DNA of 64,000 nucleotides from Escherichia coli. GTDB taxonomy: Bacteria > Pseudomonadota > Gammaproteobacteria > Enterobacterales > Enterobacteriaceae. Below are positions 7,799 to 35,761 of this stretch, piece by piece. The translations under genes and the position numbers were made by a program. The stretch is from NCBI RefSeq assembly GCF_022846255.1, contig NZ_AP025682.1; one strand, given 5' to 3'. The notes under the pieces were generated by a model. That model worked only from the letters and a program-made list of their open reading frames with translations, did not search any database and had not been told where the DNA came from. Numbering within the stretch: position 1 is the first letter of the stretch; the number at the start of each line of letters is the position of its first letter.

Positions 7799-10700
7799 TT
7801 AGTCATTTTGCTGACAGAAAACAGTAATCTCCTGGTCCAGCTCTGCAATGTGTTCTTTTACAGAGTTCAGCAACTGAAGAATTTCAGGCTTACTGTCATC
7901 TGAAACAGGTGTTATTTCTAACTGGTGGCTAATATTAATCAACTTTTGCAAATTCAGGATGTTAGCCGCACCGTGGATGCGATGAATACACTGATGGAAA
8001 GTTCTGTTATCGCCAGCTTCTAGTGCATGAAACGCAGCGGGTAGATCTTTATGCGTTTCATGCTGGAAAGTCATGAGAATCTCCTGCATCAGTTGTAGAT
8101 CATTCGCCGTATTATTCTTCAGGGCCTCGATATCAAGGTGGCGATACTGAGGTGCAATATGCGCAACCTGGTGTAACTGACTTAAATGTGTTTTCAGTAC
8201 ATCCAGAGTCAACGGTTTGAACAAACATAAGTTCATGCCGCAATTTAACCCTTTTTCACGTTCGTTAGCCTGTGCGTTGGCTGTAAGCCCCCAGATGGGT
8301 AAGGAAGAATTTTGCTCACGGAGTTTGCGAGTCAACTCAAAACCATCCATATTCGGCATATTAACGTCAGTAATAAGCAGATCATAATGTTGCATACTGA
8401 CTTTGTGTAGCGCTTGCACACCATCAGTGGCTTCATCAACATCATATCCTAATAGATTTAGCTGGCGTTTGAGTAATAGCCTGTTGGTCGGATGATCATC
8501 CGCGATTAATATGCTCAACTTTTCAGGGAGTGTTATAGGTTGTTCTGCTTTTGCCTCGACAGCCGCCACTTGTTGGGTAATTTCTACCGGGATTGTGATC
8601 GTAAATATCGTTCCTATGCCTGGATGACTTTCTAATGACAAATCGCCCTGCATGTTTTTAATTAATTCTTTGCAGATCATTAAGCCTAAACCAGAACCTG
8701 TTTGCTGACGACCTGCACTTGTTTGGCTATAGCGTTTAAACAGTTGTTGTTGTTCTTCCTGAGATAATCCACTTCCAGAATCCATAATCGTCATTTTGAT
8801 AACAGCGTGGTTGTCATCAATGTGACCCAGGGAGGTCGTAATTTTTACTGCCCCCTCGGTAGTAAATTTGAGAGCATTACTCAGTAAATTAGATAAGACC
8901 TGCTTAAACGCCTGAGGGTCGATCTTAACCAGGTAGCGTTCAGGAAGCGTACTGCTGCAACTTAATGCGATCGATTTGCTTGCAGCAATCGCAGCGAAAG
9001 AGTGACAAGTGTTCTGGACTAAAGTAGGGATATCGACCCATTGTGGTTGAAGTTGATAGTTACCCGATTCAATTTTGTCGACATCAAGGATTTCACCAAT
9101 TAAGCCGAGGAGTGATTGTCCGGTGGCGTAGGCAAGTGAAATCGCCTCCACCCGTTGTTCCTTGCTAAGACCAGAACCCGACAGTAGTTCCAGGAAGCCC
9201 ATAATGGAGCTTATTGGTGTTCTTATTTCGTGACTCATTGTTGCCAGAAACTGGCTTTTTGCGACAGTTGCATTGATCGCTTTATTTCTCTCTACTTCGA
9301 GTGCATGAATTAAATCACGCGTCTCGGTAATATCTTGCCAACCACAAATATAAACAGCATGTTCGCTTGCTGGCAGATTACATAAGGTATGCCAGTGATT
9401 AATGCATCTTTTCTCGATGCCATTATCAATTTCAAATACCTGTGTGTATATTGTTCGGTTTTCTTTCGTTTCTGCTGTGACTTCATGCGTATTAGAAAAA
9501 ACATCTTTAAAGGGGGATTCACTGTTTTCTAATGGTAACATTGCATTTTTATAGTAATCAGCAGTGAAATAATGTTCAAATGCACTATTGTGACTAATGA
9601 CATTACCTTGCCAGTTTACAACATAAGTTGGATTCGGTAAGGAATCCGAGAGCGCTTTCCGGAATGATATTTGGTTTTCTAAATCACCCTGAATAACTTT
9701 ACGACGACGAACTGAGCGTAACAGGTAGAATCCCCATAAAAGGCTACTGCCAACTAATAAAACGGATAATGTCGTAACAATATAAAATTGCTCGCTATAG
9801 AGGTCCCATGTGTCAATGGTCACATTGGGCATTTTAATCCATTTTTCGGTCAGGCGCAGAACTTCGCTTGGGGGAATTGCATTCAGTGCTTTATTAATAA
9901 TATCCTTAAGTTCCGGTTCTCCGCGAGGAAAAGCGAACGAAAGTGATGCATTCTGAACGCCGGGAATAAGAAAATGATAAAGTTCATTAGGATAGTAATG
10001 GTCGATCATGTAACGCGAATTTAACTGTGTCGCGACCAGAGCATCAAGTTCACCTTCCTTGACCTTGTGAAATGCAGCGCTGGCGTTATCGACTTTTATC
10101 CACTCTACCTCCGGATACATCTCTTTTAATTGCGAATGAAGCTCATAATAATATGGAATGGCAACTTTCATTCCTTTTTTTAATGTTTGTTCACTGTCAG
10201 GCGCTTTTTGCATGACAAAAACGTAAGGCGTTGTTATGAAGACTTCAGCAAATGAAACATTATTTTCTCGATCTTCACTATAAATAGCGGCGGGCAATAT
10301 ATCCCATCCACCGGGGTTAAGCTGTGTCCCAGCATGAATATTATGTGAAACGGTGATCGGAGAAAAATTTAAACCTGTTTGCAAGGTAATAATATTAAGA
10401 ATATCACCCATCACGCCCCGAACTGAGCCAGTTTCATCTGTCATAGAATAGGGTGGCGAGTAAGGATTTTCCAGCACCTTTAAATCGGGATGCTGCTTAA
10501 TCCACTGTTTTTCATGTTCAGTGAGTTCTAATGGTTTGTTCAGAAAGGCCAGGTTTCCTGTATCAAGCCAATTTTGTGATACTTCATAGCGAACTTCATT
10601 TGTTAAAGCATCAACAAATCGATTGAGTACTTCATTAAGAACGATTGAATCTTTTCTGGTTAATAAAAAGTTAAATTGACGCGGTGAGTTATAATACTTC

Positions 10701-11396: not shown

Positions 11397-12011
11397 TTAG
11401 CCGATTTTGTTACGTTGTGCGAATGTGTAAAGATCCATCAGTGATTTGCATTCTAATTTTTCCATCAAGCGACTTTTATAAGTGCTGACAGTTTTGTTGC
11501 TGATGAACATTTTTTCAGCAATGTCATTATTATCCTTGCCATCAAGAATATACCGCATGACACTAATTTCTTGTTTCGATAAGGAGTCGAGTTTTTGCTG
11601 GTCGGACGTTAAACTTCCAACAAACCGGTTGAGAGAGAAGGGGAAATAGCAGTAGCCATTTTTTGCAGCTTCAATAGCTGCAATGATATTGTTCATGCCT
11701 TCTTTTTTACTCACGAAACCATTAGCGCCAGCATCAGCACAATGTTTCCCGTAAAAATGGTCATTTTTAGCGGAGACAATAATAATAATTCCGCTATATT
11801 GGCGCTTTCTCAGCGTTTCTAACACCTGGATACCGTTAACTCCGGGGATATCGACATCAATGATGACGATATCAGGCTTAAGTGTTTCCACCCGCTGAAC
11901 GGCGCTTCCGCCTTCAGTCAACTCTGCTAAGATTTCAATATCGTTTTTGATCAATAAATTACGAATTGCTGCGATAGCAAGAGGATGGTCATCAATAATT
12001 ATTGCGTTCAT
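11397..12011 (-). CDS. evgA: response regulator EvgA (NarL/FixJ family)
   Basis: 204 aa; receiver domain plus C-terminal LuxR-type HTH; immediately upstream of evgS. Confidence 0.95.
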   Translation of the reverse strand: MNAIIIDDHPLAIAAIRNLLIKNDIEILAELTEGGSAVQRVETLKPDIVIIDVDIPGVNGIQVLETLRKRQYSGIIIIVSAKNDHFYGKHCADAGANGFVSKKEGMNNIIAAIEAAKNGYCYFPFSLNRFVGSLTSDQQKLDSLSKQEISVMRYILDGKDNNDIAEKMFISNKTVSTYKSRLMEKLECKSLMDLYTFAQRNKIG

Positions 12012-28241: not shown

Positions 28242-29171
28242 ATGGCAAACACTGCTGAGATATTCAATTTTCCAGTGCCGGATGAGGCACAAAAGGAGCC
28301 GCGCGTGGCAGATCTCGATGATGGTTATACGCGCATTGCAAATGAGTTGCTGGAAGCTGTGATGCTGGCCGGATTAACACAGCACCAGCTTCTGGTCTTC
28401 CTGGCTGTCATGCGCAAAACATATGGCTTTAATAAAAAACTGGATTGGGTGAGCAACGAGCAACTGTCCGAATTGACCGGGATATTGCCGCACAAGTGTT
28501 CTGCTGCAAAAAGTGTTCTGGTAAAGCGTGGGATTTTGATTCAGAGCGGGCGGAATATCGGTATTAATAATGTGGTCAGTGAATGGGCAACATTACCCGA
28601 ATCAGGTAAGAAAAATAAAGTTTACCTGAAAGAGGTAAATTTACCTGAATCAGGTAAGAAAAGTTTACCCAAATCAGGTAAAGGCGTTTACCCGAATCAG
28701 GTAAACACAAAAGACAAACTAACAAAAGACAATATAAAACCTTTTTCGTCAGAGAATTCTGGCGAATCCTCTGACCAACCAGAAAACGATCTTCCTGTGG
28801 TGAAACCAGATGCTGCAATTCAGAGCGGCAGCAAGTGGGGGACAGCAGAAGACCTGACCGCCGCAGAGTGGATGTTTGACATGGTGAAGACCATCGCGCC
28901 ATCAGCCAGAAAACCGAATTTTGCAGGGTGGGCTAACGATATCCGCCTGATGCGTGAACGTGACGGACGTAACCACCGCGACATGTGCGTGCTGTTCCGC
29001 TGGGCATGCCAGGACAACTTCTGGTCCGGTAACGTGCTGAGTCCGGCCAAACTCCGCGACAAGTGGACCCAGCTCGAAATCAACCGAAACAAGCAACAGG
29101 CTGGCGTGACAGCCGGCAAACCAAAACTCGACCTGACGAACACTGACTGGATTTACGGGGTGGATTTATGA
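28242..29171 (+). CDS. O: replication initiator O
   Basis: lambda O-like N-terminus (VADLDDGY) and C-terminus (DLTNTDWIYGVDL); iterons inside the gene. Confidence 0.9.
   Translation: MANTAEIFNFPVPDEAQKEPRVADLDDGYTRIANELLEAVMLAGLTQHQLLVFLAVMRKTYGFNKKLDWVSNEQLSELTGILPHKCSAAKSVLVKRGILIQSGRNIGINNVVSEWATLPESGKKNKVYLKEVNLPESGKKSLPKSGKGVYPNQVNTKDKLTKDNIKPFSSENSGESSDQPENDLPVVKPDAAIQSGSKWGTAEDLTAAEWMFDMVKTIAPSARKPNFAGWANDIRLMRERDGRNHRDMCVLFRWACQDNFWSGNVLSPAKLRDKWTQLEINRNKQQAGVTAGKPKLDLTNTDWIYGVDL
28592..28745. repeat. replication origin: five 19-bp iterons plus AT-rich tract
   Basis: TTTACC-N7-GGTAAA units at 28592, 28621, 28640, 28664 and 28687, followed by an A-rich tract. Confidence 0.7.
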
Positions 29172-29869
29172 AAAACATCGCCGCACAGATGGTTAACTTT
29201 GACCGTGAGCAGATGCGCCGGATCGCCAACAATATGCCGGAACAGTACGACGAAAAGCCGCACGTACAGCAGGTAGCGCAGATCATCAATGGTGTGTTCA
29301 GCCAGTTACTGGCAACTTTCCCTGCGAGCCTGGCTAACCGGGATCAGAACGAACTGAACGAAATCCGCCGCCAGTGGGTTCTGGCTTTCCGGGAAAACGG
29401 GATCACCACAATGGAACAGGTTAACGCAGGAATGCGCGTAGCCCGTCGGCAGAATCGACCATTCCTGCCATCACCCGGGCAGTTTGTTGCCTGGTGCCGG
29501 GAAGAAACATCCGTTACCGCCGGGCTGCCAAACGCCAGCGAGCTGGTTGATATGGTTTACGAGTATTGCCGGAAGCGTGGCCTGTATCCGGACGCAGAGT
29601 CTTATCCATGGAAATCAAACGCGCACTACTGGCTGGTTACCAACCTGTACCAGAACATGCGGGCCAATGCGCTGACTGACGCGGAATTACGGCGTAAAGC
29701 TGCCGATGAGCTGACCTGTATGACCGCGCGAATTAACCGTGGTGAGGCGATACCTGAACCAGTAAAACAACTTCCTGTCATGGGCGGTAGACCTCTAAAT
29801 CGTGCACAGGCTCTGGCGAAGATCGCAGAAATCAAAGCTAAGTTTGGGCTGAAAGGAGCAAGGGTATGA
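29168..29869 (+). CDS. P: replication protein P (DnaB loader)
   Basis: 233 aa, near-identical to lambda P as recalled. Confidence 0.95.
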   Translation: MKNIAAQMVNFDREQMRRIANNMPEQYDEKPHVQQVAQIINGVFSQLLATFPASLANRDQNELNEIRRQWVLAFRENGITTMEQVNAGMRVARRQNRPFLPSPGQFVAWCREETSVTAGLPNASELVDMVYEYCRKRGLYPDAESYPWKSNAHYWLVTNLYQNMRANALTDAELRRKAADELTCMTARINRGEAIPEPVKQLPVMGGRPLNRAQALAKIAEIKAKFGLKGARV

Positions 29870-30168
29870 CGGGCAAAGAGGCAATTATTCATTACCTGGG
29901 GACTCATAAGAACTTCTGTGCGCAGGACGTTGCCGTGGTAACAGGCGCAACCGTAACCAGCATAAATCAGGCTGCGGCTAAAATGGCACGGGCAGGTCTT
30001 CTGGTTATCGAAGGTAAGGTCTGGCGAACGGTGTATTACCGGTTTGCTACCAGGGAAGAACGGGAAGGAAAGATGAGCACGAACCTGATTTTTAAGGAGT
30101 GTCGCCAGAGTGCCGCGATGAAACGGGTATTGAGGGTATATAAAAGAACATCAATGGGTACACAATGA
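29866..30168 (+). CDS. ren: Ren
   Basis: 100 aa, close to lambda Ren as recalled. Confidence 0.85.
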   Translation: MTGKEAIIHYLGTHKNFCAQDVAVVTGATVTSINQAAAKMARAGLLVIEGKVWRTVYYRFATREEREGKMSTNLIFKECRQSAAMKRVLRVYKRTSMGTQ

Positions 30169-30235
30169 TGAAACAGATGAGTTGAGTTCAAACTGTAGTA
30201 CAATTCTCTCCAGTTTGAACAGGAAAGAATATGCT

Positions 30236-30568
30236 ATGAATCCTTATATTTATCTTGGTGGTGCAATACTTGCAGAGGTCATTGGTACAACCTTAATGAA
30301 GTTTTCAGAAGGTTTTACACGGTTATGGCCATCTGTTGGTACAATTATTTGTTATTGTGCATCATTCTGGTTATTAGCTCAGACGCTGGCTTATATTCCT
30401 ACAGGGATTGCTTATGCTATCTGGTCAGGAGTCGGTATTGTCCTGATTAGCTTACTATCATGGGGATTTTTCGGCCAACGGCTGGACCTGCCAGCTATTA
30501 TAGGCATGATGTTGATTTGTGCCGGTGTGTTGGTTATTAATTTATTTTCACGAAGCACACCACATTAA
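30236..30568 (+). CDS. emrE: SMR-family multidrug efflux protein EmrE
   Basis: 110 aa from MNPYIYLGGAILAEVIGTTLMK, 4 TM; matches K-12 DLP12 EmrE as recalled. Confidence 0.9.
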   Translation: MNPYIYLGGAILAEVIGTTLMKFSEGFTRLWPSVGTIICYCASFWLLAQTLAYIPTGIAYAIWSGVGIVLISLLSWGFFGQRLDLPAIIGMMLICAGVLVINLFSRSTPH

Positions 30569-30626
30569 AAATAATTTCTTTTGAATCGAGTGAAATAGGT
30601 TAGCCCGCATAAGTGCGGGCTGCTTT

Positions 30627-31670
30627 TTACAGGTCAGCGTTTGTTTTTTGTTGTTGGGTAGCGGTTTTTATGGGGGTTCCCAGGTTTTTAGTAAACCACT
30701 CAACAACTCTGTTTATAATAATTGGCTGATACCATGTATTATCTCCATGCTCAGCCCCTTCTACCAGAACGTACTCAGCGTTATCGCCGTTCTTCTTCAA
30801 CATCCTGAATAGTTTGGCGCTTTGCTCAGGTGAAACCAGAGTGTCTTTGCTACCATGCATAATAAGAAATGGGGGGTTTACTCCTTTCATATGTCCGATT
30901 GGACTGGCGTTTAGCGCTTTTTCTTTTGACGCTGTTATGGGGGCTCCCGCAAAACTTCTGAATGCAGGGCCATTGATCATTAAGGCTTCGGTTACGGCAG
31001 GAGATCGATGAACCTCCTGCACAGATTCAGGGAACCCCTCGCCAATATTCAACAAGTCAGAAATCCCATAAAGTGTGGCAACTGCCTGAACATCTGCTGA
31101 TTGCTGAAGAAAGTCACCTTTATCAAAGGTTTTGTCACCATTTGTAGTTCCCATCATCTGGGCAAGCCATCCACCGGCAGAGTCACCCAGAACTCCGATT
31201 CTTTGAGGATCAATCCCATAATCGCTGGCATGTTCTCTCAAGTAACGTATTGCAGCTTTCCCATCCTCAACTGGTGCTGGAAATGTATCAGGAATTGTTC
31301 TGTATTCTACAGCGGCCACAACAAAACCAGCTTCAGCCAGAGCCATTCTCATTTCAATAAATTTGTCATGTTCAGAAGACATGAATCCGCCGCCGGGATA
31401 ATAAATAATGGCTGGTTTTAAATCATTTGTTCGTGGGACAAGAACTGACATGTGAAGCTGTCTGACAGAACGAGTTCCTTTTATCTGGGAATAAACAACA
31501 TCACCAATGAGATCGACCTGGTTTCTGGTCGGTGAAACACTAATGATATCTGCACCCGGGGTGTAACCAGGAAGATTAGTCTGGACAGGTGTTGCACAAC
31601 TCCCGACCGACATGGCCATTGACATACCATACAATAGTGTTGCAGATGATAATATCTTGTTAATTTTCAT
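30627..31670 (-). CDS. secreted esterase/lipase lipoprotein, HSL-type alpha/beta hydrolase
   Basis: 347 aa; signal peptide with lipobox SVGSC; oxyanion motif YYPGGGF; nucleophile elbow GDSAGG; C-terminal HGSKD and AEHGDN. Confidence 0.75.
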   Translation of the reverse strand: MKINKILSSATLLYGMSMAMSVGSCATPVQTNLPGYTPGADIISVSPTRNQVDLIGDVVYSQIKGTRSVRQLHMSVLVPRTNDLKPAIIYYPGGGFMSSEHDKFIEMRMALAEAGFVVAAVEYRTIPDTFPAPVEDGKAAIRYLREHASDYGIDPQRIGVLGDSAGGWLAQMMGTTNGDKTFDKGDFLQQSADVQAVATLYGISDLLNIGEGFPESVQEVHRSPAVTEALMINGPAFRSFAGAPITASKEKALNASPIGHMKGVNPPFLIMHGSKDTLVSPEQSAKLFRMLKKNGDNAEYVLVEGAEHGDNTWYQPIIINRVVEWFTKNLGTPIKTATQQQKTNADL

Positions 31671-32117
31671 GTTTTACATGCCTTGACTTATCGGATGAAA
31701 TTCTCTTACTGAATTTAACGGCAGTTTAATAGCCGTACAACTCGTGGTAGCTAGGGAAATATCCCAGTCGTGGTTAAGGTTGTACTTGACGGCTATTATT
31801 TCAACAATGCTTAAAGTGAGAGCTTAAGGTTATGCGTATGTTTTACAGTCCGAGTAGATTCTGACCAATAGCTTCTTTGTATGATTCTGTCAGAAATAAA
31901 TCTTGGCTTGCATGAAGTTTGAGACCTTATCTTGTTTGATTATGAATAATCAATTCGCCATAATTGTATCACCGGAGCCTGAACAACTTCGGTGACTTCT
32001 GCGCTAAACGGGGACGTTTATGCGCACATACAATCCAAACTCTCTTCTCCCTTCACAGATGCAGAAATGCACCTGCGATTTTTTGCATCCTGCGTTTGAC
32101 CTCTGCGGAGGTGAAGC

Positions 32118-32573
32118 GTGAACCTCCCACAAGACGGCATCAAATTACATCGCGGCAACTTCACCGCTATCGGCCAGCAGATCCAGCCTTATCTGGAGGA
32201 AGGCAAATGCTTTCGCATGGTGCTTAAACCGTGGCGGGAGAGACGCAGTCTTTCCCAGAATGCACTTAGCCACATGTGGTACAGCGAAATCAGTGAATAC
32301 CTCATCAGCAGGGGTAAAACGTTCGCCACTCCAGATTGGGTAAAAGATGCTCTCAAACACACTTATCTCGGTTATGAAACCAAAGAACTGGTTGATGTCG
32401 TATCTGGTGAGATCACCACTATTCAGTCATTACGCCATACCTCCGATCTTGATACCGGAGAGATGTATGTCTTCCTGAGTAAGGTTGAATCTTGGGCGAT
32501 GAATATTGGCTGCCACCTGACTATTCCGCAGAGCTGCGAGTATCAGCTGCTGCGTGATAAGCAGGAGGCGTAA
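32118..32573 (+). CDS. ybcN: YbcN-like protein (DLP12 nin region)
   Basis: 151 aa; matches DLP12 YbcN as recalled. Confidence 0.75.
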
Positions 32574-32743
32574 TGGCTACACCGCTTATTCGTGTCATGA
32601 ACGGACACATCTACAGAGTACCAAATCGTCGTAAGCGTAAGCCTGAGCTGAAACCATCCGAAATACCAACACTGCTCGGATATACCGCCAGCCTGGTTGA
32701 TAAAAAATGGTTGCGACTGGCAGCAAGGAGGAATCATGGCTGA
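32573..32743 (+). CDS. ninE: NinE-family protein
   Basis: 56-aa basic protein, start overlapping ybcN stop (TAATG); nin-region position. Confidence 0.55.
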   Translation: MATPLIRVMNGHIYRVPNRRKRKPELKPSEIPTLLGYTASLVDKKWLRLAARRNHG

Positions 32744-33026
32744 TTTGAGAAAAGCAGCGCGTGGTCGGGAATGCCAGGTAAGAATCCCTGGCGTATGTAA
32801 TGGCAATTCTGAGACGTCTGTACTGGCACATATCCGGCTGGCTGGATTGTGCGGTACCGGTATCAAACCGCCAGACCTGATTGCCACCATTGCATGTTCT
32901 GCCTGCCACGACGAAATCGACCGCCGCACACATTTTGTCGATGCTGCATATGCAAAAGAATGCGCGCTGGAAGGTATGGCGAGAACACAGGTTATCTGGC
33001 TGAAAGAGGGGGTAATCAAGGCGTGA
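32736..33026 (+). CDS. ybcO: YbcO-like protein (DUF1364, Cys-rich)
   Basis: 96 aa from [14 protein letters not shown] with CxxC...CxxC. Confidence 0.7.
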
Positions 33027-33385
33027 ATACTTACCACATCACACTACCCTGGCCGCCGAGCAATAACCGCTACTACAGGCATAATCGCGGGCGCACGCAC
33101 ATCAGCGCAGAAGGGCAGGCATACCGTGATAACGTCGCCCGAATCATTAAAGGCTCAATGCTGGATATCGGTCTGGCTATGCCTGTGAAAATCCGCATTG
33201 AGTGCCACATGCCGGATCGCCGTCGCCGTGACCTGGATAATCTGCAAAAAGCCGCTTTTGACGCACTCACTAAAGCAGGTTTCTGGCTGGATGATGAGCT
33301 GGTCGTTGATTACCGCGTTGTGAAGATGCCTGTTACCAAAGGTGGGAAGCTGGAACTGACCACCACTGAACTGGGAGATGAATGA
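33023..33385 (+). CDS. rusA: Holliday junction resolvase RusA
   Basis: 120 aa, GTG start; [18 protein letters not shown] matches RusA as recalled. Confidence 0.9.
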
Positions 33386-33480
33386 TGTTTGAGTCTTATA
33401 TGGCAGAACGTCTTCGCCGCCGCTGGGTGCGCCTGCGCTTATATCGTTTTATTGATTTTTGCTGGCAATTGGCGTGCTAG
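33382..33480 (+). CDS. small ORF (ylcG-like)
   Basis: 32 aa [32 protein letters not shown] overlapping rusA stop. Confidence 0.35.
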
Positions 33481-33503
33481 CCTGATTTTTGTGGGGAAAG
33501 TTG

Positions 33504-34076: not shown

Positions 34077-35174
34077 TTAGAACTGGTAAACCAGTCCTAC
34101 GGCAACGATGTCGTCAGTGCTTACACCAAGTGCTTTAGTGAAGTCGTTTTTGTCAAGCAGGTTGATCTTGTAATCAACGAAAGTAGACATGTTTTTGTTG
34201 AAGTAATAAGTTGCACCTACATCAACATATTTGACTAAGTCCTGATCGCCCCATACTCCAAGATCCTTACCTTTAGATTGCAGGTAAGCAACGGACGGAC
34301 GCAGACCGAAATCGAACTGATATTGTGCAACAGCTTCGAAGTTTTGAGCTTTATTAGCAACGAAGTGATCAGCAAATACAGTCATATTCTGGGTTTCAGA
34401 ATAGGTAGTGGCCAGGTAAATGTTGTTAGCGTCATATTTCAGACCTGCGGCCCAAATTTCTGCATTTTTACCGGAAGCAAATACTTCAGGAAGAACTTTG
34501 CCTGCATTGACTTGAGTGTCGGTACGATCAGATTTCGCATAAGTCGCACCAATGCCGAATCCTTCGTATTCATAGGTAGCAGAGAAACCGAATCCATCAC
34601 CGTTACCTTCGGTGTAGTTATCGAAATCGCTACGATCGTTTTTACCTTGGTACTGAGCAGCAAAGTTCAGACCATCAACCAGACCAAAGAAGTCGTTGTT
34701 ACGGTAAGTTGCAACACCAGTTGCACGTTGAGTCATGAACACGTCGGTTTGAGTCCAAGTGTCACCACCGAATTCTGGCAGGACGTCAGTCCACGCACCG
34801 ATGTCGTATGCTACACCGTAGTTACGACCGTAATCGATGGAACCGTAGTCACCGAATTTCAGGCCTGCAAATGCAAGACGGGTTTTGTCTTTGGCGGAAC
34901 CTTGAGATTCAGCGCGGTTGCCTTTGAATTCATATTCCCACTGACCGAAACCAGTCAGTTGATCGTTGATTTGGGTTTCACCTTTGAAGCCCAGACGAAC
35001 ATAAGTAGTATCACCATCATCTGCATCGTTAGAGGAAAAGTAGTGCTTGGCATTAACTTTCCCGTACAGATCCAGCTTGTTACTGTCTTTATTATAAATT
35101 TCAGCTGCCTGAGCAGACATCGCCATCAGTACTGATGCAGCTACAGCAGAAATTGCCACTGTTAATTTTTTCAT
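34077..35174 (-). CDS. nmpC: outer-membrane general porin (NmpC/OmpC family), apparently intact
   Basis: 365 aa from [11 protein letters not shown]; signal peptide; C-terminal F; long AT-rich upstream region 35175-35716. Confidence 0.9.
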
Positions 35175-35761
35175 CGTGAGCCCTTTTTTTGAACTATTAT
35201 TAAAAAATGATGTCACTGCGCGATAAATATTCATCTAATCAATATGATTATTTCAAGATGTAAGTTTTAGTTTCTCATTTAATTTGTGAAGTAGATCTCT
35301 ATTTTTATCTGAACTTTTTCTATCGAAACCTATTTATGGCTCTTATTTGAACAAAAATAAACCTATTAGCTAATTTATATTAATGGCTGTTATTTATGGT
35401 GGTTCTATAATTCGGAAGTTTAATTTAAATCAACTAAAAATAACGTCGGAAATTATTTATTGGTTATTTGTTGAGGTTTTCTAATGTATTTGTGGTGGTG
35501 TTTTGAACACTCGGTAGCATTCTCATAAATATCATTCAGTGGTTTACGTACGTAAAAAATTGGTTATGCTGTTAAGAGTGGTTACTTCGTCACACAGCTT
35601 AAACCCGCCGTCGAGCTGGTTTTTCCATTTTTTGAGTCTCGATATTAGCTGATAACTCAATACCTGAGTTATTCACTGACTCCGAGTCTGTTACGTTTCT
35701 GCTTTTTTGCGATACGTTGTATTCCCTCAATTTACACCCGCTTTGTCTGCGAGGTGGGGTT

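Follow-up and report, generated by a model that had tools for sequence, protein, structure and literature searches.

A predicted lipid-anchored BD-FAE/CE10-like esterase carried as a moron in the nin region of a lambda-like Escherichia coli prophage

Several described systems resemble parts of the locus analyzed here, a 347-amino-acid (aa) open reading frame (ORF) that lies convergent with emrE in the nin region of a lambda-like prophage, within a 64,000-nt stretch of Escherichia coli contig NZ_AP025682.1 (hereafter the window, meaning that whole stretch). The closest solved structure by sequence is that of Lip_vut4 (6NKF), a 'lipase' from a goat rumen metagenome for which we know of no defined physiological substrate. 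The plant pathogen Dickeya encodes on its chromosome FaeD and FaeT, which were reportedly characterized by Hassan and Hugouvieux-Cotte-Pattat in 2011. Both proteins have been named as CE10 feruloyl esterases (PMC10319131; bioRxiv 10.1101/568105), and the published locus tags are DAQ1742_00888 for faeD and DAQ1742_00893 for faeT (supplement of PMC8386352). BD-FAE, which comes from a Bacteroidetes polysaccharide-utilization locus, has been described with a Ser-Asp-His triad and as a bifunctional enzyme that removes both acetyl and feruloyl groups (PMC8165983). Finally, the nin region of the E. coli K-12 prophage DLP12 has the gene order renD-emrE-ylcJ-ybcK-ybcL-ybcM-ylcH-ybcN.

Our analysis suggests, with a probability that we put at roughly 60%, that emrE and the convergent ORF are two independent morons of this prophage and that the ORF encodes an exported, lipid-anchored hydroxycinnamoyl esterase of the BD-FAE/CE10-like type. 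The esterase gene itself has the placement expected of a phage moron: conserved phage genes lie on both sides of it, and it occurs in some phages while otherwise similar ones lack it. It is also widespread, already annotated and ordinary nin-region cargo: it was found at 95-100% nucleotide identity in 680 of 5426 complete E. coli genomes (12.5%), with at least 80% of the gene covered in 670 of the 680 carriers, and in eight records of isolated lambda-like phages, namely 4A7 (two records), Lambda_4C10, D2, 1W, 3W, Perceval and PhiR47_2. The exact protein is present in NCBI as 'esterase' or 'alpha/beta hydrolase' (e.g., BDH32598.1). Mathieu et al. (2020) note the presence of EmrE in two lambda genomes but are silent on the esterase, and our literature searches found no published functional characterization of this E. 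coli/phage gene. The phage-borne copies are under purifying selection, with a dN/dS of 0.07-0.19 between allele groups and mostly synonymous differences (13 synonymous and 4 non-synonymous changes between the window and phage 4A7), and the five alleles examined do not differ in either the catalytic motifs or the lipobox.

As judged from its sequence and predicted fold, the 347-aa protein is an intact serine carboxylesterase; although kin to the hormone-sensitive lipase (HSL) family, it fits better into the BD-FAE/CE10-like group on account of its BD-FAE score, the order of its structural matches and its invariant triad. It belongs to the Pfam family BD-FAE (PF20434; 152.6 bits, E = 1.5e-44, cut-off 26.8), the match spanning residues 80-290 of the protein and positions 7-214 of the 215 in the profile. 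Given this E-value and the presence of the same gene at at least 95% identity in the 680 genomes, the ORF is not a chance ORF. The HSL-type Pfam family Abhydrolase_3 scores 80.9 bits (cut-off 25), well under BD-FAE, and the C-terminal half of the protein matches Peptidase_S9 (65.9 bits, residues 249-331) and also DLH. The protein belongs, in addition, to PHROG 3341, named 'esterase' (430 bits). In the NCBIfam profile search no equivalog approached its cut-off for this protein, the HSL subfamily models GTSAG, GESAG and GCSAG giving 54.9, 47.5 and 32.1 bits, respectively, against cut-offs of 380-430. Identities as a chloramphenicol hydrolase, the pectin acetylesterase PaeX, a tannase or a polyhydroxybutyrate (PHB) depolymerase were rejected on the same grounds, as all of them lie far under the NCBIfam cut-offs.

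An earlier, sequence-only reading of this DNA, made by a model without database searches, had read a lipobox in SVGSC and had assigned the protein to the HSL family on the basis of the motifs YYPGGGF, GDSAGG, HGSKD and AEHGDN. All five motifs are present (GGGF at 93, GDSAGG at 162, HGSKD at 272 and AEHGDN at 306), and the part of that claim that stands is that of a serine esterase with an intact triad; the family is instead BD-FAE/CE10-like (152.6 vs. 80.9 bits). In the HSL family the C-terminal catalytic Asp is found in a DPxxD-type motif, whereas here it sits in HGSKDTLV, and the oxyanion motif is Y-P-G-G-G-F, with Pro92 occupying the position of the His of the HSL HGG(G) motif. Loss of catalytic residues, which the same reading had named as the finding that would speak against it, is not seen: GGGF 93-96, Ser164, Asp276 and His308 are invariant in the alignment of 36 homologues.

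The structural comparisons agree with this placement. The closest solved structures by sequence are 6nkf (Lip_vut4, E = 8.8e-37), 6mly (the esterase domain of a Bacteroides GH43-CE protein) and 6xyc/6tkx (BD-FAE). An AlphaFold model built from the 36-sequence alignment (mean pLDDT 82.4, below 50 for residues 1-27) was used for a Foldseek search, in which 6nkf, 6mly and 6tkx/6xyc ranked first and classical HSL esterases lower; the fold and sequence matches also include the acetyl-ester/xyloside hydrolase 6a6o. The catalytic residues align with those of 6nkf, 6mly and 6xyc, and the triad has the same order as in BD-FAE. Lip_vut4 is 33% identical to the phage esterase (phmmer; TM 0.72-0.83) but is a metagenomic protein without an N-terminal lipoprotein signal. 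BD-FAE shares the Pfam family, the triad order and the fold (Foldseek E ~1e-19, TM ~0.65-0.8), yet it is only 24-25% identical and, unlike BD-FAE, the phage esterase is an enterobacterial, phage-borne predicted lipoprotein found outside a polysaccharide-utilization context.

The N-terminus of the protein (MKINKILSSATLLYGMSMAMSVGSC; MKINK...SVGSC, with Cys25) has the features of an export signal, with an n-region charge of +2 (K2, K5) and a 17-residue h-region of mean hydropathy 1.4. The sequence V-G-S-C25, followed by Ala-Thr, passes a PROSITE PS51257-style lipobox pattern. Relatives at 74-80% identity likewise carry S-(A/T)-G-C, whereas those at ~60-72% identity have a plain A-x-A signal peptide or none and no lipobox Cys; the lipobox is thus a derived trait of the small clade to which the phage gene belongs. 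The representative of the 90%-identity cluster (P0001; 1454 members) bears Tyr25, which is atypical of its cluster. The suspicion raised by this sequence, that the lipobox might be peculiar to the window, was ruled out: the exact 40-mer with the Cys25 codon is present in 679 of the 5426 complete E. coli genomes, i.e., in 679 of the 680 carriers, and its Tyr25 version in none of the 5426. The esterase is therefore a candidate lipoprotein that is probably lipid-modified on Cys25. Under the +2 rule, an Ala at +2 leads by default to outer-membrane sorting via the Lol pathway.

Some relatives at 72-74% identity, encoded on Klebsiella, Enterobacter and Kosakonia plasmids (P0023, P0028, P0030, P0033, P0042 and P0043), have no signal peptide at all and adjoin genes for an aromatic alcohol reductase, a gluconolactonase and an amidohydrolase. 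The predicted location within this one family thus varies among cytoplasmic, periplasmic and lipid-anchored.

The gene neighborhoods of the relatives point to a substrate. Among the nearest non-phage relatives, P0002 (80% identity), the copy on plasmid pSCU-105-1 (75.7%) and P0005 (74%, an arrangement present on three contigs) are each preceded, at 12-33 bp, by a phenolic acid decarboxylase gene; the 75.7 and 74% loci also have a neighboring LysR regulator gene, which on pSCU-105-1 is upstream. These enterobacterial plasmid decarboxylase-esterase (pad-esterase) operons resemble the phage gene in identity (74-80%), protein length and a lipobox-type signal peptide (S-T/A-G-C), and differ from it in that the esterase follows a decarboxylase gene and, in two cases, is under a LysR regulator. 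On pSCU-105-1, an E. coli IncF conjugative plasmid (NZ_CP051739; L009 3155-7047), the cassette consists of a LysR gene split by IS3, the decarboxylase gene and the lipoprotein esterase gene. The phage may have acquired its copy from a small catabolic cassette of this type.

Other relatives have different neighbors. P0003 (79% identity, lipobox STGC; L015 1-6113) adjoins a SPATE serine-protease autotransporter and a PerC-family regulator and not a decarboxylase, a setting that suggests a virulence plasmid or island. In the record of Escherichia phage PHB10 (MK524177; L004, 1-5915), a 73%-identical esterase gene lies in a LysR/amidohydrolase/gluconolactonase/aromatic alcohol reductase block that matches Klebsiella variicola plasmid pKP91 and is apparently common to the phage record and the plasmid.

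Homologues in Dickeya are 62-69% identical to the phage esterase. That of D. aquatica (P0078; 62-66%) carries the UniRef name 'Ferulate esterase'. Its gene and that of a 42%-identical paralogue at the faeD position, which is adjacent to a LysR gene, are five locus tags apart; by locus-tag position and gene order only, P0078 would correspond to FaeT. It shares with the phage esterase its length, the GDSAGG elbow and the triad. The Dickeya proteins have ordinary signal peptides, while the phage esterase has the lipobox Cys and is encoded in a nin region, without an adjoining LysR gene. The presence of an esterase gene next to one for a decarboxylase of ferulic, p-coumaric or caffeic acid is readily explained if the esterase frees those acids. 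Together with the Dickeya faeT link and the bifunctional feruloyl/acetyl xylan esterase that gives the family its name, these neighborhoods make hydroxycinnamate esters (feruloyl or chlorogenate) the most likely substrate class. The sequence-only reading had left the substrate open, which needs correction, as the class is indicated by neighborhood and kinship.

Several points weigh against this reading of the gene. The phage copy adjoins neither a decarboxylase nor a LysR gene, so that its selective benefit in E. coli is unclear. The exact clade of the esterase holds no assayed enzyme, and the assignment of its Dickeya relative as FaeT goes by locus-tag position only. Among the structural neighbors are enzymes with a preference for acetyl or short acyl esters, and the specificity could accordingly differ or be broader. 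As for export, the Gly at -2 is atypical and the lipobox fails the strict pattern [LVI][ASTVI][GAS]C. Finally, the promoter scan gave no sigma-70 consensus match on the minus strand upstream of the esterase gene, the best relaxed match being CTCTCA-16-AATAAT at 31822-31795 (8/12), 124 nt upstream of the ATG.

The main alternative is a carbohydrate esterase of general short-chain acyl or acetyl specificity, which would use acetylated xylo-oligosaccharides, pectin fragments or O-acetylated host glycans and show no particular preference for hydroxycinnamates. This would fit the protein's structural neighbors, which include the bifunctional acetyl xylan esterases 6xyc/6tkx, 6a6o and the short-acyl esterase Est2, the double activity of BD-FAE itself, and weak NCBIfam matches to an acetyl esterase, PaeX and the acetylxylan esterase AxeA1. 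Those matches are far under their cut-offs, however, and the partnership of the nearest relatives with a phenolic acid decarboxylase in an operon is sensible only if a hydroxycinnamic acid is released; as the Dickeya relative is also annotated as a ferulate esterase, we consider this alternative unlikely. An HSL-type lipase, or a carboxylesterase that acts on lipids, drugs or toxic esters as a colonization or detoxification factor, in line with the suggestion of the sequence-only reading, seems quite improbable. The Abhydrolase_3 score, the GDSAG nucleophile elbow, weak matches to LipP1, LipQ and chloramphenicol hydrolase, and the deposition of the top Protein Data Bank match, 6nkf, as a 'lipase' would all agree with it, but the BD-FAE score is nearly double, the oxyanion loop reads YPGGG and not HGGG, and the C-terminal half is S9/DLH-like. 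Moreover, the HSL subfamily and chloramphenicol hydrolase models reach 32-61 bits against cut-offs of 380-500, and the fold search places classical HSL structures after the carbohydrate esterases.

The protein might instead serve the phage, as an envelope esterase that de-O-acylates O-antigen, enterobacterial common antigen (ECA), peptidoglycan or lipid and so alters receptors and excludes superinfecting phages. The known envelope de-O-acetylases belong, to our knowledge, to other folds (SGNH), no PADLOC defense model matched, and the non-phage relatives lie in catabolic contexts with phenolic acid decarboxylase and LysR genes, all of which make such a role very improbable, even though the gene is carried by viable lambda-like phages, a lipid anchor in the envelope is predicted only in the phage and closest-relative clade, and many lambda morons are membrane proteins (PMC6969025). 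That the gene is a decaying, non-functional passenger is barely credible. It has no clear promoter upstream, its partner decarboxylase gene is absent, and a few genomes have truncated copies, with cluster members of 194-272 aa; nevertheless, the ORF is at least 80% covered in nearly all carrier genomes (the 670 of 680 given above), and with invariant catalytic residues and the low dN/dS between phage-borne alleles the gene is not the inactive remnant that the sequence-only reading had allowed for. A functional coupling of emrE and the esterase, for example the hydrolysis of sinapine-type choline esters followed by choline export, was also considered and rejected. Such coupling is unlikely because the linkage of the two genes is not conserved, at least 17 of the 42 IMG/VR loci described below having neither emrE nor ybcK.

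If the preferred reading of a lipid-anchored hydroxycinnamoyl esterase is correct, the protein would be made with a signal peptide ending in a lipobox, probably be lipidated on Cys25 and, with Ala at +2, be sorted by default via Lol to the outer membrane, held there by a disordered tether of ~25 residues. Hydrolysis of carboxylic esters would then fall to the Ser164-Asp276-His308 triad and the GGGF oxyanion loop, the likeliest substrates being small, soluble, porin-passing hydroxycinnamate esters such as feruloyl or p-coumaroyl oligosaccharides and chlorogenate, with acetyl esters also possible. In evolutionary terms, the esterase gene alone would have been captured by the phage, with a new upstream region, and the lysogen would gain a de-esterifying activity on plant-derived dietary compounds.

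In the gut, lactobacilli and bifidobacteria are usually regarded as the bacteria that release hydroxycinnamic acids. Were the preferred reading true, a common prophage gene would let E. coli free ferulic, caffeic or p-coumaric acids from dietary fiber fragments and chlorogenates. It would also mean phage-mediated conversion of a metabolic, and not a virulence, trait, and that a gene from a plasmid pad-esterase operon can persist alone in a phage. Whether this is the gene behind the strain-variable cinnamoyl/chlorogenate esterase activity of some human colonic E. coli isolates is more doubtful, and we offer this link as a tentative possibility. If it holds, lambda-like phages would be spreading a dietary-polyphenol-releasing trait by lysogenic conversion to about one eighth of E. 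coli genomes, among which are many human isolates, urinary-tract strains included. A review lists three chlorogenic-acid-hydrolyzing E. coli strains (PMC10340781).

The locus is laid out as follows, with gene coordinates given as positions in the window and taken from the ORF list and translations:

29866-30168, plus strand: ren-like exclusion gene (PHROG 142 'Ren-like exclusion protein', E = 2.6e-41; ORF list)
30236-30568, plus strand: emrE, for an efflux transporter of the small multidrug resistance (SMR) type (110 aa; ATG at 30236 inside the ORF 30182-30568)
30562-30576, no strand: single 15-bp copy of CATTAAAAATAATTT (from comparison of L002 with the window)
30601-30622, no strand: GC-rich hairpin separating the convergent emrE and esterase genes (terminator scan and folding)
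30627-31670, minus strand: 347-aa predicted exported alpha/beta-hydrolase (BD-FAE/CE10-like, FaeT-like esterase; Pfam, PDB relatives and alignment)
30747-30749, minus strand: His308 codon
30843-30845, minus strand: Asp276 codon
31179-31181, minus strand: codon of the nucleophile Ser164
31596-31598, minus strand: Cys25 codon (+2 residue Ala)
31596-31670, minus strand: predicted signal peptide (residues 1-25), with the lipobox V-G-S-C at its end
31671-31960, minus strand: esterase-specific upstream region, 39% G+C (aligned with L002, L020, phage 4A7 and K-12)
32020-32121, plus strand: ylcH (annotation of the near-identical locus L001)
32118-32573, plus strand: ybcN (NCBIfam PRK09741, 275.5 bits; L001 annotation)

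The ren-like gene is the final conserved gene of the replication module ahead of the cargo, and ylcH and ybcN are conserved nin genes on the other flank of the esterase gene, whose G+C content is 44.3%, vs. 48.9% for the window. The emrE product scores 239 bits against the cut-off of 226 of the NCBIfam model SMR_efflux_EmrE, matches Pfam Multi_Drug_Res (E = 2.1e-35) and has the essential residue Glu14 of EmrE, within AILAEVIG. The ORF list and the EmrE score thus bear out the order that had been read from the letters, ren followed by emrE and then by the convergent 347-aa ORF.

Comparison with DLP12 shows a common backbone of ren, emrE, ylcH, ybcN, ninE, ybcO and rusA, with emrE in the same place. 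The two regions differ in that DLP12 has ybcL-ybcM where the window has the esterase cassette, and in that the ylcJ-ybcK segment is absent from the window. The 290 bp upstream of the esterase gene are cassette-specific: every esterase-bearing locus has them in nearly the same form and K-12 lacks them, and homology to K-12 picks up again near position 31960. The sequence-only reading had stated that DLP12 carries ybcK, ybcL and ybcM at this position instead of the esterase; this is right for the replaced pair ybcL-ybcM, but ybcK is usually retained between emrE and the esterase gene, and the ylcJ-ybcK segment was either lost from the window or never present there.

The comparison of nin regions covered K-12, isolated phages and IMG/VR, in which we surveyed 42 loci with a full-length esterase gene. 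The esterase proved to be common cargo with a fixed spacing to ybcN: in 40 of the 42 loci ybcN and the esterase start are 447-451 nt apart (the remaining two loci end early). Three different left-hand contexts were found on the emrE side:

ybcK and then emrE: 11 loci (a 12th ends just past ybcK)
emrE directly, as in the window: 4 loci
no emrE or ybcK, but a gap of 3.8-4.2 kb up to phage gene P: 17 loci, the commonest context
contig ending too early to judge: 9 loci

The variable left neighbor and the replacement of ybcL-ybcM relative to K-12 bear out the view of the gene as accessory nin-region cargo. In the urinary-tract isolate strain 2/0 (NZ_CP023853; L020 1699-5964), the gap holds a gene for a 1421-aa inverse autotransporter (intimin/invasin-like) that is convergent with the esterase gene; the esterase-bearing prophage of this strain also carries iss.

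Among complete genomes, the direct emrE-esterase junction of the window is shared only by NZ_OY754409. This junction coincides with the single copy of CATTAAAAATAATTT. In the usual arrangement, the 15-bp sequence occurs twice as a direct repeat (L002 ~9927-9941 and ~12001-12015), bracketing the 2.07-kb ylcJ-ybcK (serine recombinase) segment. The first copy includes the emrE stop codon, and the second is preceded by an apparent short remnant of the emrE 3' end (…TCA CGC CCC CAT TAA). The single copy in the window is consistent with either a precise deletion of ylcJ-ybcK or a pre-insertion state.

The prophage of the window is complete-looking and lambda-like and lies beside dsdC (near dsdX, dsdA and emrY; ~18131-19300 and leftwards), which is the KplE1/CPS-53 insertion site. 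Comparison with strain P470 leads us to expect a torI-type excisionase gene at the left end of the prophage; no tRNA gene was found anywhere in the window. A near-identical nin region sits at argU in NZ_OY754409, and the same nin module is present at icd in SCU-301. As these sites differ from that at dsdC, the module is common to prophages at several loci.

The terminator scan predicts that the hairpin at 30601-30622 is an intrinsic terminator for emrE, with the T-run on the plus strand. It folds at -16.9 kcal/mol on the plus strand (z = -3.2) and -14.8 kcal/mol on the minus strand (z = -3.7), where the same stem forms past the 3' end of the esterase gene without a clean T-run. An Rfam scan of positions 29000-33500 at E-values up to 1 found no structured RNA. 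Further along the window, downstream of the Q antiterminator region, a porin-like 385-aa ORF (34077-35234, minus strand) corresponds to the ompC/nmpC-type porin cargo of the related locus L001 and of phage 4A7.

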